Shown: positions 2,070-63,609 of the stretch, piece by piece
How the letters are laid out: every line of letters begins with the position of its first letter
Position numbering within the stretch: the first letter of the stretch is position 1
Source: Candidatus Pacearchaeota archaeon
GTDB lineage: Archaea > Nanobdellota > Nanobdellia > Pacearchaeales > GW2011-AR1
Reading direction: 5' to 3'
Assembly (NCBI GenBank): GCA_050302495.1
Contig: JBNLBP010000001.1
Span: 191,269-255,268 of the forward strand
DNA length: 64,000 nucleotides
Notes under the pieces: generated by a model
The model's database searches: none
The model's input: the letters and a program-made list of their open reading frames with translations, nothing else
Told to the model about the DNA's origin: nothing
Position numbers and translations under genes: made by a program

Positions 2070-3323
2070 ATGAAGGGTATATTTGTTATAATGGATGGGC
2101 TGGGTGATTTGCCTCATCCCATGTTGAAGGATGAAACTCCTTTAGAGGCCGCTAGAACATTAAATATGGACTTTTTTGCTGCTAGAGGGGAGTTGGGCTA
2201 TGTTTATTCTGTTAAGCCTGGTTTTGTTCCAGAGTCAGACGAGGCAATTGTTTCTTTGTTTGGGAATGAGTTGATTTCTAGCTCAAGAGGGCAGCTTGAG
2301 GCTCGGGGTGCAGATATGAAGCTTACTAGAGGAGATCTTGCTTTGAGAATTAATTTTTCTGCAATTGATTCTTTAGATGAAGGGAAGAAGAATATCTTGG
2401 ATAGGCGGTCTGGAAGGACTCTTAGCACCAAAGAAGCGGAACAACTTTCTAAGGCAATAAATAAAATTAAGATGCCGGTCAAATTTGAATTTAAACCCAC
2501 AATTCAGCATAGGGCAGCTTTGGTTTTCAAAGGAGGGTTTTCTGACAATGTTTCAGGGAATGATATGGCTTATGAGGCTGGTAAGAATAAAATTTTTGAT
2601 AAAGTGGTTAAATGTAGACCTCTTGATGAAGAGGACAACACGCAATATACTGCGAATATATTAAATGAATTTTTGGAAAAGGTTTACGATGCTTTAAAGG
2701 ATCACCCTGTTAACGTTGAGAGGGTTAAGAAAGGTCTTATGCCTGCAAATTACCTTTTAGTGCGTGGAGCAGGTATTGAACCTCCAAAATTAAAACAATA
2801 TAAAAAATGGGTTTCTGCTAGCTATATGCCTTTGGAGATTGGTTTTTCAAAAGTATGTGGTATGAAAAATTTTTCTTTCGAATATCCAAAACTAAAATCT
2901 TTAGATGCTTATGAGAATCTTTGGAGAGGTTTAAGGAAAGCTTGTAAGAACGCTATTAAAGTTATAAGTAAAAACCATAAGAAATTTGATTATGCTTATA
3001 TACATTTAAAGGAGACAGATCTTCCAGGACATGATAACAAACCTGTTGAGAAGAAATTAATGTTGGAATATATAGATATGACTCTCTTTAAATTCTTGAG
3101 AAAGTTCTGTCCTTCTAAGCAAGTTAGACTTTTGGTTACAGGAGATCATTCTACTCCTTGTAAGCTTAAAGCTCATTCAGCCGATCCAGTTCCTTTGCTG
3201 TATTATCCTGCTGAAGAAGTTAAGCCTGAAGAGAGACATTTTAATGAAAAGGAAGCTAAAAAAGGTAGTTTAGGAAAGATTGTAGGTAAGGATTTGTTCA
3301 AGAAAGTTAAGTTTTTGAAATAG
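2070..3323 (+). CDS. apgM: 2,3-bisphosphoglycerate-independent phosphoglycerate mutase, archaeal type
   Basis: N-terminus IMDGLGD and VTGDHSTP motif typical of archaeal ApgM. ATG chosen at 2070 (MKGIF); the ORF-track start at 2055 is also possible. Confidence 0.85.
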   Translation: MKGIFVIMDGLGDLPHPMLKDETPLEAARTLNMDFFAARGELGYVYSVKPGFVPESDEAIVSLFGNELISSSRGQLEARGADMKLTRGDLALRINFSAIDSLDEGKKNILDRRSGRTLSTKEAEQLSKAINKIKMPVKFEFKPTIQHRAALVFKGGFSDNVSGNDMAYEAGKNKIFDKVVKCRPLDEEDNTQYTANILNEFLEKVYDALKDHPVNVERVKKGLMPANYLLVRGAGIEPPKLKQYKKWVSASYMPLEIGFSKVCGMKNFSFEYPKLKSLDAYENLWRGLRKACKNAIKVISKNHKKFDYAYIHLKETDLPGHDNKPVEKKLMLEYIDMTLFKFLRKFCPSKQVRLLVTGDHSTPCKLKAHSADPVPLLYYPAEEVKPEERHFNEKEAKKGSLGKIVGKDLFKKVKFLK

Positions 3324-5483: not shown

Positions 5484-5831
5484 ATGATGGACTTTGGATG
5501 TGGTAATTTGGATTTGGATGAAGTAATAAAATGCACTTTTGGTCTTAGCAAAGCAGAATTTAGATTGTTTAATTTTTTTATTAAAAATTCTCAGGGGGAA
5601 TTTTCAAGTGATGATCTTTCTAAGAAAATTGGTTTGGATAAGTCAACAATTCAGAGAGGGTTGAAGAAGCTTCATGCTAAAGGTTTGCTTTTTAGAAAAC
5701 AAATTAATCAGGCTTCTGGAGGGTATATTTTCTTTTACAAAATTAAGAATAAGCAGGCAGTTAGAGAAAAGATCTTTGGGATAATTGAAAATTGGAGTAA
5801 GAGAGTGGATGAGGAGTTAAGTAAGTGGTAA
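5484..5831 (+). CDS. winged-helix DNA-binding protein (putative transcriptional regulator)
   Basis: Central LSKKIGLDKSTIQRGLKKLHAKGLL segment resembles a MarR/TrmB-like wHTH recognition helix. Confidence 0.5.
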   Translation: MMDFGCGNLDLDEVIKCTFGLSKAEFRLFNFFIKNSQGEFSSDDLSKKIGLDKSTIQRGLKKLHAKGLLFRKQINQASGGYIFFYKIKNKQAVREKIFGIIENWSKRVDEELSKW

Positions 5832-5861
5832 GGTTTATTAAATATTAAATCATGTTTTTTT

Positions 5862-6068
5862 ATGGTAAGTATAAGTAGGTTGATTGCAGGAATCTTTTTT
5901 ATCTTGTTGGGTATATTTTTTATCGGGTTATCTTTTGTTGAAACTTTGTTTATTTTGATTTATGGAATACCTTTGATTGTTGTTGGAATCGTTTTATTGT
6001 TAAATAAGAATGAGGATAAGATAGAAGAACGATTGGACGGAAAAGGTAAAACTTTAAATAAAAAATAA
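5862..6068 (+). CDS. small membrane protein
   Basis: 68 aa with two hydrophobic helices and a charged C-terminal tail. Confidence 0.4.
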   Translation: MVSISRLIAGIFFILLGIFFIGLSFVETLFILIYGIPLIVVGIVLLLNKNEDKIEERLDGKGKTLNKK

Positions 6069-6081
6069 TATTTGAATTAAT

Positions 6082-6672: not shown

Positions 6673-6762
6673 AGCCTGTGACCGGATTTGAACCGGCGAC
6701 CTACTGCTAACTTGTTAAATTTTAAGTACAAGGCAGCCGCTCTGCCACTGAGCTACACAGGC
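6673..6762 (-). tRNA. tRNA-Thr (anticodon TGT) with an 18-nt intron at canonical position 37/38
   Basis: Reverse complement folds as acceptor GCCTGTG/CACAGGC, D-arm GCTC-AGTGGCA-GAGC, anticodon stem GCTGC/GCAGT, loop CTTGTA..A, T-arm GCCGG-TTCAAAT-CCGGT. Intron about 6709-6726; its ACAAG segment pairs with loop CTTGT, giving a BHB-like helix. No encoded CCA. Confidence 0.8.
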
Positions 6763-6868: not shown

Positions 6869-7315
6869 ATGAACTGGAGCTACTTTGCTGGATTTATGGA
6901 CGGAGAAGGTTCCATTATTCTTAAACCTCCTAGAGTTAGACTTTATGTGGCAAACACCAATAAGCAAGTTTTAGAAGAAATTAGTAATTTTCTTGGTTGT
7001 GGTAAAGTTTACGATATAAATATGAAAAACAAAAGTGATAAATGGAGTAAACAATATGGTTGGACGATTGCCAATCATAAAGATGTTCTTAGGATTTTGA
7101 AAGGTTTGAAAAACAGATTAATAATTAAAAAACAACTTTGTCAGGATGCAATTAAGTATATTGAAAATAAACGATGGCAGAGGAACTATTTATCCAAGGA
7201 AGAATTGCAAAAGTGGGTTTATTTAAAATCCAGTCGAAAAATTGCCAGAAAATTAGGTGTTAGTCAATCTGCAGTTTTAAATTATCTTAAGAAGTATGGA
7301 ATTTATTATCGGTAA
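6869..7315 (+). CDS. LAGLIDADG homing endonuclease-like protein (single motif, with C-terminal HTH)
   Basis: N-terminal YFAGFMDGEGSI is a near-canonical LAGLIDADG motif. C-terminal SRKIARKLGVSQSAVLNYLKKYG looks like an HTH. 148 aa. Starts 107 nt from the tRNA-Thr 5' end and abuts rps3ae tail-to-tail. Confidence 0.7.
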   Translation: MNWSYFAGFMDGEGSIILKPPRVRLYVANTNKQVLEEISNFLGCGKVYDINMKNKSDKWSKQYGWTIANHKDVLRILKGLKNRLIIKKQLCQDAIKYIENKRWQRNYLSKEELQKWVYLKSSRKIARKLGVSQSAVLNYLKKYGIYYR

Positions 7316-20813: not shown

Positions 20814-21551
20814 ATGGAGATTACAGAAGGTCTTTCGGAAATATTTGGAATGTTTGCAGCAGATGGGAATTTGCAGGAGAATCATATTAGTATGTGGGGC
20901 AATATTCATGAAGATAAGGAATACTATGATAGGGTTGTTTGCCCTTTGTTTTCTAAAGTATTTGGAATAAATGTAAATGCACATGAGAAAGAAAGCAATT
21001 CTGTTTATGGGTTTTACATCTGTAGGAAGGAGATAATTAAGATTTTCAAGGATTTTGGTTTTACTCGTAGAAAGACCTATTCGGTAAAAATTCCACATGA
21101 AATTTTATTTTCTAAAGACAAGAACATAATTTCGGCTTTTATAAGGGGTTTTGCTGATTGTGATGGTTGTTTAAATTTTATGAAACGTTATGAAAAAGGA
21201 TATTCTTCTTTTAAGAGAAAATATCATACTTATCCGAGGATTTTTATTGGTGTTGTTTCTAAGCAAATTATTTTTGATTTGAGTTTTTTGTTGGATTTCT
21301 TGAACATTGGCCATTCTGTTCACTTTTCTTCAAAGAAGAAGGTTAATGAGGCAGATGTTTATCGGATTGCTGTTAGGGGTCCAGAAAGAATAAATAAATG
21401 GATGGATTCTATAGGTTTCAATAATTACTCTAAATTTACGAAATATCTTGTCTGGAAAAAACATGGTTTTTGTCCAACCCCTTCTTCTCTTAAACAAAGA
21501 GAATTGATCTTGCAAAATGAATTAATTCCAGAAAGTCTTTATGAAATGTAA
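20814..21551 (+). CDS. LAGLIDADG homing endonuclease-like protein (double motif)
   Basis: Two dodecapeptide-like motifs, IFGMFAADGNL and FIRGFADCDGCL, about 100 aa apart. ATG at 20814. Stop lies 35 nt upstream of the intron-containing tRNA-Leu. Confidence 0.7.
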   Translation: MEITEGLSEIFGMFAADGNLQENHISMWGNIHEDKEYYDRVVCPLFSKVFGINVNAHEKESNSVYGFYICRKEIIKIFKDFGFTRRKTYSVKIPHEILFSKDKNIISAFIRGFADCDGCLNFMKRYEKGYSSFKRKYHTYPRIFIGVVSKQIIFDLSFLLDFLNIGHSVHFSSKKKVNEADVYRIAVRGPERINKWMDSIGFNNYSKFTKYLVWKKHGFCPTPSSLKQRELILQNELIPESLYEM

Positions 21552-21561: not shown

Positions 21562-21585
21562 CCCTATTTTATATGATTATAATAT

Positions 21586-21711
21586 GCTCCGGTAACTCAG
21601 CCTGGATAGAGTGCCAGATAAATTGAATAAAATGAGATTTAGGCAAACCTTCTATCCAGTTAAGTCTGGAAAGTAAGCTGGAAGTCGCAGGTTCGAATCC
21701 TGTCCGGGGCA
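21586..21711 (+). tRNA. class-II tRNA, probably tRNA-Leu (anticodon TAA), with an about 41-nt intron at a non-canonical position
   Basis: Acceptor GCTCCGG/CCGGGGC + A, D-arm ACTC-AGCCTGGATA-GAGT (Leu-like AGCCTGG loop), T-arm GCAGG-TTCGAAT-CCTGT. Total 126 nt; a class-II tRNA of about 85 nt would leave an intron of about 41 nt. The only canonical loop reading is U33-UAA-G37 (TTAAG at 21660-21664). This forces the intron (about 21619-21659) to lie after position 32 rather than 37. A 9-bp helix CTGGATAGA (21603-21611) / TCTATCCAG (21651-21659) spans it. Exact junctions unresolved. Confidence 0.6.
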
Positions 21712-21718
21712 TTTATCT

Positions 21719-30224: not shown

Positions 30225-30254
30225 TTTTTTAAACTTGTTTTGTTTTTTGGTTTT

Positions 30255-30602
30255 ATGGAAGATTGCATTTTTTGTAAGATAGCTTCTGGTGAAGTTACCT
30301 CAGATAAAATCTATGAAAATGATAGCTTTTTTTCTATGCCAGATAAAAATCAACAGATAGAAGGGCATAGTTTGGTTATATCAAAAAGACACTTTAAGAC
30401 TACTTTAGATATGCCTTCGACTGTTGGTACGGAGTTGTTGGATTGTGTTAAACAAACTGCTTTGAAAGTTTTAGACTCTGAGAAGGCCGATGGATTTAAT
30501 CTTGTTCAGAATAACTTTGAATCTGCAGGACAGGTGGTCAACCATGTTCATTTTCATATACTCCCTAGAAAGAAAGGTGGAAAAGTTCCAAGAGTTTACT
30601 GA
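30255..30602 (+). CDS. HIT family (histidine triad) nucleotide hydrolase/transferase
   Basis: CIFCKI N-terminus and HVHFHILPR histidine triad. Confidence 0.85.
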   Translation: MEDCIFCKIASGEVTSDKIYENDSFFSMPDKNQQIEGHSLVISKRHFKTTLDMPSTVGTELLDCVKQTALKVLDSEKADGFNLVQNNFESAGQVVNHVHFHILPRKKGGKVPRVY

Positions 30603-30667
30603 TTTTTGTGTTTAATTATAGAATAGTTCTAAAATATTATATTATTTTTTGTTTTGTATTTGTTGTG

Positions 30668-31447
30668 ATGTTTGATATCAATAAGTTGTCTCATGATGAA
30701 AGATTTGCTCTACTTTATGGAATAATGTTGGGAGATGGATGTTTGTCAAAATATGTTACAAAACAAAAAAGAACGATATTTGGCATATCAATCGTTTGTA
30801 ATTACTACGATGATATTCCTTTTATTAAAGAATTTGTAGCTCCAATAATAAATTCTTTGCGATCTGGGATGAAACCTTTGAGAATTATTAGAAGGCCTGA
30901 AAAAGGAACTGTTGAATTGTTCTTCTCTGATAAAAGTCTTTTTTGCAAAATTAATTCTTTAGGATTTCCTATTGGTAAGAAAGGAACAAAGATAATTATT
31001 CCTGGAGAATTCCATAGGAGAGATCTTGTCAAATATGTTATTCAAGGAATTTTTGCTACGGATGGTAGTTTGGTTTTAACAAAAAATCCTAACAAATTTT
31101 ATCCAAGATTGGAGGTCCATATGATTGCTCATGATTTGATAAGACAAATTCATGAATTCTTGATCGAGAATGGTTTTAATGGTAACATGTATGAATGCAA
31201 AAGGAATAAGGATGAGAGGGGATTTATTAAAATCTTCAAAAAGTTTCGTGTGCAGTTTAATGGGAAAAAGAATTTGATATTGTTTTATAAAAATATCGGA
31301 TTTGTTAATCCTAAACAACTGAAAAAATTCCAGGCATTTATGAGATATGATCGGAAATATCTTTCTTCTAAAAAGGAACTGTTTAATCGGGTAATTTTGA
31401 AAGATATGGCTGCACTGAGATTCGAACTCAGGACCTCAAGCTCATGA
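30668..31447 (+). CDS. LAGLIDADG homing endonuclease-like protein (double motif)
   Basis: LLYGIMLGDGCL and VIQGIFATDGSL motifs. First ATG at 30668; the ORF-track start at 30608 is GTG. The 3' end overlaps tRNA-Met on the opposite strand by 41 nt. Confidence 0.65.
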   Translation: MFDINKLSHDERFALLYGIMLGDGCLSKYVTKQKRTIFGISIVCNYYDDIPFIKEFVAPIINSLRSGMKPLRIIRRPEKGTVELFFSDKSLFCKINSLGFPIGKKGTKIIIPGEFHRRDLVKYVIQGIFATDGSLVLTKNPNKFYPRLEVHMIAHDLIRQIHEFLIENGFNGNMYECKRNKDERGFIKIFKKFRVQFNGKKNLILFYKNIGFVNPKQLKKFQAFMRYDRKYLSSKKELFNRVILKDMAALRFELRTSSS

Positions 31448-31479
31448 GACTTGCGCTCTACCAACTGAGCTATGCAGCC
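31407..31479 (-). tRNA. tRNA-Met (anticodon CAT; elongator, or Ile2-type)
   Basis: Reverse complement GGCTGCA-TA-GCTC-AGTTGGTA-GAGC-G-CAAGT-CTCATGA-GCTTG-AGGTC-CTGAG-TTCGAAT-CTCAG-TGCAGCC-A. G1-C72 argues against an initiator. Confidence 0.85.
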
Positions 31480-31526: not shown

Positions 31527-31733
31527 TTATTTAACTTCAAGCTCTGCCTTTTTTATGGCTTCTTGCCTTTTCATTCTAGAAATTAATCCTGCTGTTTTGT
31601 TTCTAAGCTTCTTACTTGGCATTGTATCTCCAAGTATCTTTTTGTTAGTTTCAAAATCTTCTGTAAATGGTAGTCCTTCTTTTATTAGAGTCTCTGAAGT
31701 ACTTCTCATCATCTTTGATTTTATCTTTCCCAT
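31527..31733 (-). CDS. rps17e: 30S ribosomal protein S17e
   Basis: MGKIKSKMMRSTSETLIKEGLPFTEDFETNKK matches the conserved S17e N-terminus (DFETNKK). Confidence 0.8.
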   Translation of the reverse strand: MGKIKSKMMRSTSETLIKEGLPFTEDFETNKKILGDTMPSKKLRNKTAGLISRMKRQEAIKKAELEVK

Positions 31734-62455: not shown

Positions 62456-62478
62456 AGAAAATTATCTTCAGATTTAAT

Positions 62479-62566
62479 GCCCTGGTAGCTCAGTTGGTTA
62501 GAGCGAACGGCTGTTATTTCCCAAACAGATACCGTTAGGTCGCAGGTTCAAGTCCTGCCTGGGGCG
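62479..62566 (+). tRNA. tRNA-Asn (anticodon GTT) with a 14-nt intron at canonical position 37/38
   Basis: GCCCTGG-TA-GCTC-AGTTGGTTA-GAGC-G-AACGG-CTGTTA[TTTCCCAAACAGAT]A-CCGTT-AGGTC-GCAGG-TTCAAGT-CCTGC-CTGGGGC-G. Intron at 62517-62530; its AACAG pairs with loop CTGTT, giving a BHB-like helix. Confidence 0.8.
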
Positions 62567-63609
62567 TATTTCCTTCTTTTATTACATATTTCTAGTAGGT
62601 CTTGATGACCTATTTTTCCTTTAATTAATGCTATTCGTTCTGTTGTTTTTGAATTTGGGAAAGTATTTCTAAATTTTATGTAACATTCATATTTTGAAAG
62701 GTGTTTTATATTGTTTAATTTCCATTTATTTATTATTTCTATTGCTCCTTTTTTGTTGATGTAGAATCTTCCGTATCCTTTATATTTTGTTAGTTTAAAC
62801 TTGATTTTGTTTTTTGTGAATATTTCTGCTAGTTGGTCAAGAATAGTAAAACTTGCTAATTTTCCTGTGATTGCTATCGAACTTGTTATACTAAAATCGG
62901 TATCAATAATCCCTGCAGCACATCTTTTTGATAACTCTTTGTTTTTCATTATTTCTCCAGGAATTTTTATTTTTTTCTTGTTTCCAGAATCTAATTTTAG
63001 AATATTCTTTTTAAATTCTGTCACGGCTCTGGACTTAATTCTTGTTTCAATGGAATTTTTTGATGGTCTTTCTATAATTGTTGGTTTTATTCCATAAATC
63101 TTATGTAATAATTCTTTGAGATGCTTTTTGTGATATATTTCTTCATCTTTTAAATCTCCAGTAATTGTGTAAACATAATATTTTATTCCATCTTTTCTTG
63201 GTGCATTTTGCAGATTTCCGTCTCCTATATGTATTCCTACCTCTTCCGCTAGATCTCCTGTTATTTCTTTTGGTATTCTTACTCTTCTCTTTATGTCTGG
63301 CCAAGAAAGATGTACTTCTGAATGATGTTCAATATCTTTAAAGAAGATTTTGTAAAGATTTTTTGTAGATCCAAATTTTTGTCTTATTACTACATCACTC
63401 CCGTATCCTGCAATCCAAGTTGTTATGTAAGAATTTATTTGTCTAAACTTTTCATATTGTATTCTTGCAGCTTCAATTAATCTTGTTTTTGGGTCTTTTA
63501 TTTTCCTAATGTTTTCTATTTTTGATGAAGATATTTTGAATTCTTTTTCAGGAATATTTAATCTTTCTTCTTTCGGCAACTCTCTCCATTTTTTCTTTAT
63601 AGAAATCAT
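62548..63609 (-). CDS. LAGLIDADG homing endonuclease-like protein (double motif, N-terminal extension)
   Basis: LAEEVGIHIGDGNL and RCAAGIIDTDFSIT motifs after an about 110-aa N-terminal region. ATG at 63607-63609. Last 19 nt overlap the 3' end of tRNA-Asn on the opposite strand. Confidence 0.7.
   Translation of the reverse strand: MISIKKKWRELPKEERLNIPEKEFKISSSKIENIRKIKDPKTRLIEAARIQYEKFRQINSYITTWIAGYGSDVVIRQKFGSTKNLYKIFFKDIEHHSEVHLSWPDIKRRVRIPKEITGDLAEEVGIHIGDGNLQNAPRKDGIKYYVYTITGDLKDEEIYHKKHLKELLHKIYGIKPTIIERPSKNSIETRIKSRAVTEFKKNILKLDSGNKKKIKIPGEIMKNKELSKRCAAGIIDTDFSITSSIAITGKLASFTILDQLAEIFTKNKIKFKLTKYKGYGRFYINKKGAIEIINKWKLNNIKHLSKYECYIKFRNTFPNSKTTERIALIKGKIGHQDLLEICNKRRKYAPGRT

Follow-up and report, generated by a model that had tools for sequence, protein, structure and literature searches.

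The subject of this study is a free-standing gene for a predicted LAGLIDADG homing endonuclease that ends inside a tRNA(CAU) gene on the opposite strand. The pair lies in a 64,000-nucleotide stretch of contig JBNLBP010000001.1 from a Candidatus Pacearchaeota archaeon, referred to below as the window. This DNA is archaeal, has a G+C content of 32.7% and encodes ribosomal protein S17e, and its best protein matches carry the names Pacearchaeota, Woesearchaeota or Nanoarchaeota, which belong to the DPANN archaea. We judge it fairly probable that the nuclease gene and the tRNA gene that it overlaps constitute one mobile cassette of about 0.9 kb, which targets a tRNA gene and brings with it a resistant replacement. 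The observations that carry this proposal are the fold of the protein and its catalytic residues, the adjacency of the two genes in relatives, a polymorphism in the presence of the nuclease gene, the uncoupling of its divergence from that of host markers, relics of tRNA genes beside it, one resident tRNA gene that has been split and a motif difference between linked and unlinked tRNAs. From these we infer that the enzyme cleaves DNA, where it does so, how the break is repaired and that the linked tRNA is resistant.

The nuclease gene and the tRNA gene that it enters

The initial annotation of this region had named the open reading frame (ORF) at 30668-31447 of the forward strand (259 amino acids and a stop) a LAGLIDADG gene, and this was borne out by a match to Pfam LAGLIDADG_3 above the cut-off (E 7.9e-07). 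Of the two starts that had been offered, alignment with 39 homologues selects ATG 30668 (MFDINKL...) and not GTG 30608. Two LAGLIDADG motifs are present in the one chain, LLYGIMLGDGCL (LLYGIMLGDG, with D23) and IQGIFATDGSL (with D132), and both aspartates are invariant in an alignment of 40 sequences that contains 29 invariant columns. A search of 5.8 billion proteins returned 378 homologues with 45-59% identity. The AlphaFold model consists of two domains (predicted local distance difference test score, pLDDT, 89.4; predicted template modelling score, pTM, 0.86) and exhibits the expected order of elements for the tandem alpha-beta-beta-alpha-beta-beta-alpha fold. The nearest proteins by profile search are I-DmoI and I-Tsp061I (E about 1e-4), and these are also nearest in Foldseek (E about 1e-9, target-normalised template modelling score 0.70-0.76), where together with E-DreI they make up the top 25 matches in the PDB. 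Nothing in the sequence or the model suggests a loss of catalysis, and the protein appears to be a monomeric two-motif LAGLIDADG homing endonuclease. Its gene is not housed in an intron or an intein; it is an ORF of its own between the gene for a HIT-family hydrolase and an intact, intron-less tRNA gene. Nor does it have the location of a nuclease gene in a bulge-helix-bulge intron, for the ORF is antisense to the tRNA and extends beyond it.

The tRNA gene occupies 31407-31479 of the reverse strand, where ARAGORN reports tRNA-Met(cat) and the Rfam tRNA model fits a full-length canonical cloverleaf (72.8 bits, E 1.7e-15). It is intron-less and carries G37. The pair G1:C72 is present and the three G:C pairs of archaeal initiators are absent, as befits a non-initiator tRNA. 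By the rules of tRNA identity it is presumably an elongator tRNA-Met or a tRNA-Ile2. ARAGORN, the list of ORFs and the sequence itself all uphold the convergent orientation and the overlap of 41 nucleotides (nt), 31407-31447 including the stop codon, that had been described initially. The extent of the overlap on the tRNA had been given as the acceptor 3' strand, the T-arm and part of the variable loop, and this was understated. The shared segment begins at the discriminator and continues through the anticodon-stem 3' strand into the anticodon loop, as far as position 33. tRNA positions 73 to 33 supply, in antisense, codons 247-259 (MAALRFELRTSSS) together with the stop, and the stop codon itself (TGA, 31445-31447) is the complement of U33-C34-A35. 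The ORF enters the tRNA because nothing separates the two genes, and it finds no stop of its own until the anticodon loop provides TGA; in the frame used in the window, the anticodon loop of any tRNA(CAU) will do so.

It was of interest to compare this tRNA-encoded tail with the ends of homologous proteins. The C-termini of homologues are tRNA antisense in three frames, and they reach into the tRNA by 0-84 nt. Some tails are in the window's frame (MAALGVEPRTSSS, MATPRVELGTSCS and MAAPGIEPGTPSS), and another, WLHQELNLGPPAHETGALTN, represents the second frame and reads through the anticodon. The tail MALRGI stops early, at a TGA from the T-loop antisense, and still other homologues terminate shortly before they would enter the tRNA. 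Homologues vary in how far the tRNA lies from the last motif that is conserved in the protein, and residues 248-259, which are tRNA-encoded, are predicted to be disordered (pLDDT <50). The initial annotation had allowed both for incidental read-through, should the last residues not be conserved, and for a miscalled extension of the ORF, should homologues consistently end before the tRNA. Most of them end inside it, and the tail looks incidental, a read-through of 13 unconstrained residues that, to judge from the alignments and the model, probably have no conserved role in the protein.

Although the tail looks incidental, the adjacency of the two genes is, on comparison of the sequences, a trait of the family. 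Homologous loci (80 in all) were obtained from GTDB species representatives, and in 52 of these the nuclease is at least 42% identical to that of the window. In about 49 of the 52 the end of the ORF meets a non-initiator tRNA(CAU) that is encoded on the other strand; about 40 of these ORFs share 10-84 nt with the tRNA, in 7 the two genes lie within 0-3 nt of each other and 2 leave a gap of 7-28 nt. Overlap or abutment is found at about 47 of 52 loci, which is far beyond chance. The closest relative of the window protein, at locus L161, overlaps its tRNA by 42 nt and has a short tRNA relic next to the HIT gene. Several linked tRNAs that were missed by ARAGORN in its default mode carry introns. 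In many loci the HIT and nuclease genes read toward the tRNA(CAU) gene from one side, and the tRNA, S17e and a further neighbor, hyp300, are read in the opposite direction; the order hyp300-S17e-tRNA(CAU) is conserved among loci. Some loci have the tRNA in inverted orientation between HIT and S17e, and in these too the nuclease gene is at the tRNA 3' end. Correlations bearing on whether tRNA and nuclease travel together were weak (rho 0.19-0.34) and not decisive.

In the window the insertion site is flanked by two host genes, HIT (30240-30602, forward strand, assigned by Pfam) on the side of the tRNA 3' end and S17e (31527-31733, reverse strand, also from Pfam) on the side of the 5' end. The placement of the nuclease gene between the Nudix/HIT genes and the tRNA was stated correctly at the outset. 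From the HIT stop to the nuclease start there are 65 A+T-rich nt (30603-30667, forward strand) with a TATA-like AAAATATTATATTA. We presume that this segment is the promoter of the nuclease gene because it is analogous to the junctions at L034, L038 and L041, in which a tRNA relic is followed directly by AAAA-TATTTATATA.

Probable horizontal movement, tRNA relics and a candidate target

For an unbiased view of the site, a metagenome scan was anchored on the host neighbor hyp300 instead of on the nuclease. Among the 53 anchored loci that include the tRNA, 6 contain the nuclease gene and 47 (about 89%) do not. In many of the empty sites HIT and the tRNA are 25-160 nt apart, and a hidden Markov model (HMM) of the family detected no nuclease remnants at empty sites (all E > 0.8), including those in which the gap between tRNA and HIT is 380-700 nt. 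The pairwise identities of the nuclease are uncorrelated with those of hyp300 (Spearman 0.02, n=311), whereas hyp300 and S17e are correlated in the same loci (0.63); this test of incongruence uses pairwise identities only. HIT was unusable as a further host-marker control (rho 0.04-0.07 against hyp300), probably as a result of paralogy. When loci are arranged by the similarity of hyp300, occupied and empty sites interleave. The nearest relative of the window, L081, is empty, and many other occupied loci likewise have their closest host relative among the sites that lack the gene. In these comparisons of sequence, the pattern is that of a gene that comes and goes horizontally and not that of a core gene. 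The initial annotation had assigned the nuclease gene to an ordinary intergenic spacer at a gene-cluster boundary; the comparative data do not sustain this view and point instead to the gene and its tRNA as a mobile cassette.

In at least 13 independent occupied loci a relic of the 3' part of a tRNA(CAU), from about position 29 to 73, is found upstream of the nuclease start. The relics are oriented like the intact tRNA, all of them end at the tRNA 3' terminus and none extends beyond position 28. The best preserved are in L021 (30-74), L034 (29-75) and L009 (28-72). Most relics are closer in sequence to the tRNAs of empty sites than to the intact tRNA of their own locus. Distant loci share the junction at which the relic passes into the TATA-like box AAAA-TATTTATA, and this recurrence suggests that the junction is inherited with the element.

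The arrangement in L034 is the most informative. Along the plus strand there are, in order, a relic that runs from tRNA position 73 to 29 (2519-2565), the promoter, the nuclease gene (2599-3261), a new intact tRNA on the minus strand (3220-3293), 6 nt and a second relic that runs from position 20 to 1. The second relic derives from a different tRNA than the new one, and the two relics have complementary acceptor strands. Together they amount to a tRNA of the type found at L134, minus exactly TAGAGCGC (positions 21-28). Since the relics rebuild a tRNA of this type, a resident tRNA gene has been split by the insertion of a new tRNA and a nuclease gene, and the new tRNA appears to use the resident promoter. 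When the surroundings of the intact tRNA in the 52 loci were searched for a 5' part left by the resident tRNA, only L034 and an ambiguous, self-type copy in L008 emerged. A mirror case was found in L072, in which the 5' part (1-33) of an initiator tRNA is duplicated upstream of a co-directional relative beside that tRNA; among distant relatives, flanking repeats are clear only in this locus. In the window, no relic above shuffle controls was found beside any of its four nuclease genes.

Empty sites were also inspected for relics that a past loss of the nuclease might have left, and these are clear in 2 of 47 (L118 and L142) and possible in 2 more (L107 and L112). In these sites a duplicated 3' part of the tRNA lies 90-150 nt downstream of tRNA(CAU), with no nuclease gene. 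The spacer of about 100 nt has a shared GACCGAGG…GAGGT(C/T)GAGC-like motif, which is present in L085 and L148 as well. The duplicates may be scars of nuclease loss or may belong to a different small element.

Alignment of the 5' parts of nuclease-linked and unlinked tRNAs revealed a difference in the same region of the molecule. The sequence AGAGCGCNGCTCTCAT (positions 21-36, with the palindromic AGAGCGCNGCTCT) occurs in 30 of 47 tRNAs from empty sites and in none of the 52 that are linked to a nuclease gene (Fisher p = 1e-13). When the comparison is confined to the metagenome set, the respective proportions are 30/47 and 0/6 (p = 0.004). AGAGC and GCTCT in this motif are reverse complements centered on position 27, and the center coincides with the relic junction at 28/29 and with the 8 nt lost in L034. 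The empty-site tRNA type represented by L134 and L126 carries TTAGAGCGCTGCTCTCATGAGG (…CAGAGTTTAGAGCGCTGCTCTCATGAGGCAG…). Linked tRNAs break one arm of the motif or the other. The window tRNA reads AGAGCGCAAGTCT, and other linked tRNAs have AAAGC, AGAGT, AGAAC or AGTAGC, with matching changes in the D-stem. We hypothesize from this motif contrast and from the relic junctions that (T)TAGAGCGC-N-GCTCTCA, at positions of about 20-35, is the target, a pseudo-palindrome of the kind that LAGLIDADG enzymes prefer. Homing endonucleases of this class typically make a double-strand cut with 4-nt 3' overhangs in a target of 14-40 bp.

Several further features of these tRNAs were noted. In L018, L040, L049 and L055-L057 the introns of the linked tRNA(CAU) are non-canonical, located in the D-loop (about 20/21) or the 5' strand of the anticodon stem (about 30), at both edges of the proposed target region. 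The tRNA(CAU) in the window and its syntenic copies in L001-L160 almost always have G37 (loop CUCAUGA), which turns CTCATGAG into an 8-bp palindrome; A37 is usual in tRNAs that read codons starting with A. G37 was considered as an immunity mutation and was ruled out in this role, as it is found at occupied and empty sites alike. The T-loop is unusual, too, in many copies of tRNA(CAU) at empty sites; it reads TTAAAAT, so that A takes the place of the expected C56.

Other observations concern the genes around and within the cassettes. A conserved ORF of 42-68 amino acids (…ITLRGDRDLWIDFIAKIKKERKNVWEVLEQFIKHYLKK) lies just upstream of the nuclease gene in L161 (2871-2999), L001, L005, L006, L015, L017, L023, L032 and L111, and in L006, L015, L017 and L023 a tRNA relic is found upstream of it. 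In L161 it is 1 nt from the nuclease start, and the window does not have it. The ORF resembles a small regulator that binds DNA, a likeness to which Pfam lends no support; its assignment to the ribbon-helix-helix proteins was dropped for the same reason. L161 has two more genes of note. One (1920-2798) encodes a predicted membrane protein of 292 amino acids and has the tRNA relic beside HIT (1843-1859) on one side and the unit of small ORF, nuclease and tRNA on the other; it may have been carried in by the cassette or inserted later. The other is a tRNA splicing endonuclease gene (tRNA_int_endo, 5558-6076) about 1.7 kb from the cassette, from which it is separated by Alba, a 63-amino-acid ORF in the position of S17e and a 280-amino-acid ORF in that of hyp300. 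Its proximity is probably only a matter of synteny. Finally, L035, L073, L076 and L077 contain truncated or prematurely stopped members of the family that resemble decaying copies late in a homing cycle.

The cassette model and its alternatives

In the model that we favor, the enzyme would cut a resident tRNA(CAU) gene near positions 21-33, in the 3' strand of the D-stem and the 5' strand of the anticodon stem, at (T)TAGAGCGC-N-GCTCTCA. Repair of the break would then copy the cassette from a donor, with its resistant tRNA variant, the nuclease gene and promoter and, usually, an arm consisting of the tRNA 3' part. The new tRNA variant would confer resistance by breaking the palindrome. The 3' part of the resident tRNA, about positions 29-73, would stay behind upstream of the nuclease promoter as a dead relic and would decay; in the window it would already be gone. 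On this model, the tRNA(CAU) of the window would be the cassette-borne copy and resistant to cleavage. A speculative corollary is that the whole nuclease ORF could not be deleted cleanly without damage to an essential tRNA, given that 41 bp are common to both genes.

Several points weigh against this model. The window has no relic, and the history of a cassette there is drawn from its relatives. A 5' relic is clear in one locus only, L034, and replacement may concern either the whole tRNA or its 3' part. The motif contrast is a correlation, confounded by phylogeny and by the different sampling of the two sets of tRNAs, and the clean test within the metagenome set rests on about 4 independent occupied loci. 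Some unoccupied tRNAs (L089, L106, L119 and L121) have a sequence of the resistant type, which fits a loss of the nuclease but does not prove it. The identities of the nucleases span a narrow range of 40-65%, so that saturation may contribute to the lack of correlation with the host. The synteny of the block is well conserved, so that part of the pattern is due to vertical inheritance over long periods in which the gene was lost repeatedly.

The last of these points leads to the best of the alternatives, in which a LAGLIDADG gene has been domesticated and is inherited vertically. The deletion bias of a compact genome would have removed the spacer and the stop codon, and overlap and adjacency would be accidents that involve no mobility. 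The block of HIT, nuclease, tRNA, S17e and hyp300 is indeed syntenic across many genomes, the protein is well conserved, as its 29 invariant columns attest, its tail is unconstrained and disordered, and the window is without a relic. Against this, 47 of the 53 equivalent sites lack the nuclease gene and show no remnants of it. The divergence of the nuclease is not coupled to that of hyp300, while S17e tracks hyp300, and the gene follows the 3' end of the tRNA when the tRNA is inverted. Relics of tRNA flank it, in L034 it splits a resident tRNA and its relatives are found beside many different tRNAs. We therefore consider domestication unlikely.

The diversity of these tRNAs is already evident in the window, which contains four LAGLIDADG genes, each beside a tRNA gene. 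A tblastn search of the window for paralogues found none; a search with the family HMM then found three, and the tRNAs next to these three all have introns. The first paralogue (62548-63609, reverse strand; 353 amino acids) is distant (HMM E 1.7e-10) and converges with an intron-containing tRNA-Asn(GTT) at 62478-62567 on the forward strand, recognized with the intron mode of ARAGORN (-i). It overlaps this tRNA by 20 nt, with its stop in the T-loop antisense, and is the other instance of convergent overlap in the window to which the initial annotation had rightly alluded. The second (20814-21551, forward strand; 245 amino acids; HMM E 1e-17, with a match to Pfam LAGLIDADG_3) is followed after 33 nt by a co-directional tRNA at 21585-21712 on the forward strand. 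This tRNA of 128 nt has one or more introns and is not seen by default ARAGORN; intron mode calls it, provisionally, Arg(tct). The third gene (6869-7315, forward strand) encodes 148 amino acids with a single LAGLIDADG motif and a helix-turn-helix (Pfam LAGLIDADG_3, LAGLIDADG_1 and HTH_50) and diverges from an intron-containing tRNA-Thr(TGT) at 6673-6762 on the reverse strand, 107 nt away (ARAGORN -i). Default ARAGORN miscalls the two 90-nt tRNAs, 6673-6762 and 62478-62567, as Leu(taa) and Thr(tgt). Read with a canonical intron at 37/38, the former is Thr(TGT) with an intron of 18 nt and the latter Asn(GTT) with one of 14 nt. Elsewhere, relatives with 26-41% identity adjoin initiator, Ile(UAU), Asn, Lys, Val-like, Gln and multi-intron CAU tRNAs. 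These tRNAs mostly contain introns, they are convergent or co-directional with the nuclease gene, and it is usually the 3' end of the ORF that touches them.

These introns are an argument for a second alternative, in which the substrate would be RNA, or the expression of a tRNA gene would be the object of control. The protein would be a maturase-like or WhiA-like factor, kept in cis for the sake of a neighboring and often intron-rich tRNA. Introns were predicted in 10 of 15 non-CAU tRNAs adjacent to a family member in the loci that were fetched, and in 9 of 56 located elsewhere (p 3e-4), a comparison that is subject to the imperfections of ARAGORN's intron mode. LAGLIDADG maturases and WhiA demonstrate that the fold can be put to new use, and a maturase is among the fold matches. 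At the tRNA(CAU) locus itself introns are not enriched, being present at about 21% of the occupied sites and about 40% of the empty ones. Against this alternative, both catalytic aspartates are invariant and the tRNA of the window has no intron. A factor that acts in trans needs neither an overlap nor duplicated fragments of tRNA, and the gene is dispensable at most sites. These considerations make this explanation improbable.

A third alternative takes the relics to be att-type repeats of an integrase-driven element or a plasmid that targets tRNA genes, with the LAGLIDADG gene as surviving cargo. A direct repeat of the tRNA 3' part is the classic scar of such integration, and it is present in the occupied loci described above (at least 13). 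An element with a comparable tRNA fragment and a recombinase has been described in Caldiarchaeum (PMC3293823), and the additional 292-amino-acid gene between relic and cassette in L161 might be viewed in this light. In the loci that were examined, however, the repeats never enclose a gene for an integrase or a recombinase; usually they enclose just the nuclease ORF, with or without the small upstream ORF. The intact and relic copies differ in sequence type and so are not identical att copies, and the same junction of relic and promoter recurs with the nuclease gene across distant loci. We regard this alternative, too, as improbable, and give it no more credence than the preceding one. It is very improbable that the protein really ends before the tRNA, for example by way of transcript termination, and that the overlap is an artefact of ORF calling. 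The predicted disorder of the tail and its lack of conservation at the protein level would fit such an error, but the reading frame meets its first stop at 31445, and roughly 40 of 52 homologues likewise have none before the tRNA, at 33% G+C, where stops are frequent.

A mobile cassette of nuclease and tRNA remains the reading that we prefer, and it may be extended to the relatives as a group. We put forward tentatively, and with less than even confidence, the idea that DPANN archaea harbor a large family of natural "cleave-and-rescue" elements, in which a nuclease that destroys a resident, essential tRNA gene would be fused by antisense overlap to a resistant replacement. Repeated invasions by such elements might drive the turnover of tRNA alleles, scatter relics and select for the introns and odd substitutions to which DPANN tRNA genes owe their disrupted state. 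If this were true, it would provide the first concrete agent for the old idea that the disruption of tRNA genes is a defence against mobile elements. The relatives beside diverse, mostly intron-containing tRNA genes would make testable a cause for the frequent interruption and fragmentation of tRNA genes in archaea. In practical terms, the nuclease ORFs and the intron-rich tRNAs that adjoin them are easily mis-annotated, and the enzymes would be new meganuclease scaffolds with specificity for tRNA genes.

Comparison with known systems

Searches of the literature brought to light no earlier account of an archaeal LAGLIDADG gene that is linked to a tRNA gene. The nearest proteins, I-DmoI and I-Tsp061I, are monomeric homing endonucleases that likewise combine both motifs within a single chain and possess a catalytic pair of acidic residues. 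They are encoded in a bulge-helix-bulge intron of an archaeal rRNA gene, whereas the window gene is outside any intron, and the window protein has in addition a C-terminal helix (215-233) and the tRNA-encoded tail. With I-DmoI and I-Tsp061I, the function of the host gene is kept by splicing; here it would be kept by a replacement tRNA or part of one. If this is correct, a homing endonuclease keeps its essential target working by means of a replacement tRNA gene and not by a self-splicing intron or an intein.

The scars that we describe have a counterpart in integrative elements. SSV-type fuselloviruses and pNOB8-type plasmids insert into tRNA genes, where a copy of the tRNA 3' part restores the whole tRNA and the displaced copy forms a direct repeat. 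The att sequence that SSV-type elements derive from the tRNA is also traversed by an ORF. The likeness lies in the displaced tRNA 3' part that remains (compare PMC3293823). The cassette differs in its lack of an integrase, in its size of about 0.9 kb and in having repeats that belong to different tRNA sequence types. Its junction is near position 28/29, beside the pseudo-palindrome, as would be expected for a cut by a LAGLIDADG enzyme followed by recombinational repair.

In its logic the model resembles two other systems. F-CphI is reportedly a free-standing enzyme encoded beside the intron-containing psbA gene of cyanophage S-PM2, with which it engages in collaborative homing; in synthetic "cleave and rescue" (ClvR) drives, as with F-CphI, a nuclease is linked to a version of an essential target that it cannot cut, and the two spread together. 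ClvR is engineered, and we know of no natural example that is based on a tRNA. With F-CphI protection is due to an intron, whereas the cassette would owe it to substituted bases in its tRNA; introns at 20/21, about 30 or 37/38 may serve this purpose in some relatives.

The closest parallel is SegB, a free-standing endonuclease in the tRNA gene cluster of phage T4 that drives the preferential inheritance of this region (PMC2330249). SegB and the other free-standing homing endonucleases of T4 (PMC2330249) share with the gene described here a location among or next to tRNA genes, a sporadic distribution and, on the cassette model, the co-inheritance of the nuclease gene with a neighboring tRNA allele through cleavage of the allele that lacks the nuclease. 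The differences are that SegB is a GIY-YIG enzyme of a phage, while the window gene encodes a monomeric LAGLIDADG protein in an archaeal chromosome, overlaps its tRNA in antisense and has relatives that leave behind a duplicated or displaced part of a tRNA; cleavage here is deduced. If the cassette model is correct, free-standing homing linked to tRNA genes is not confined to T4-type phages but takes place in archaeal chromosomes, and with enzymes of the LAGLIDADG family, as well.

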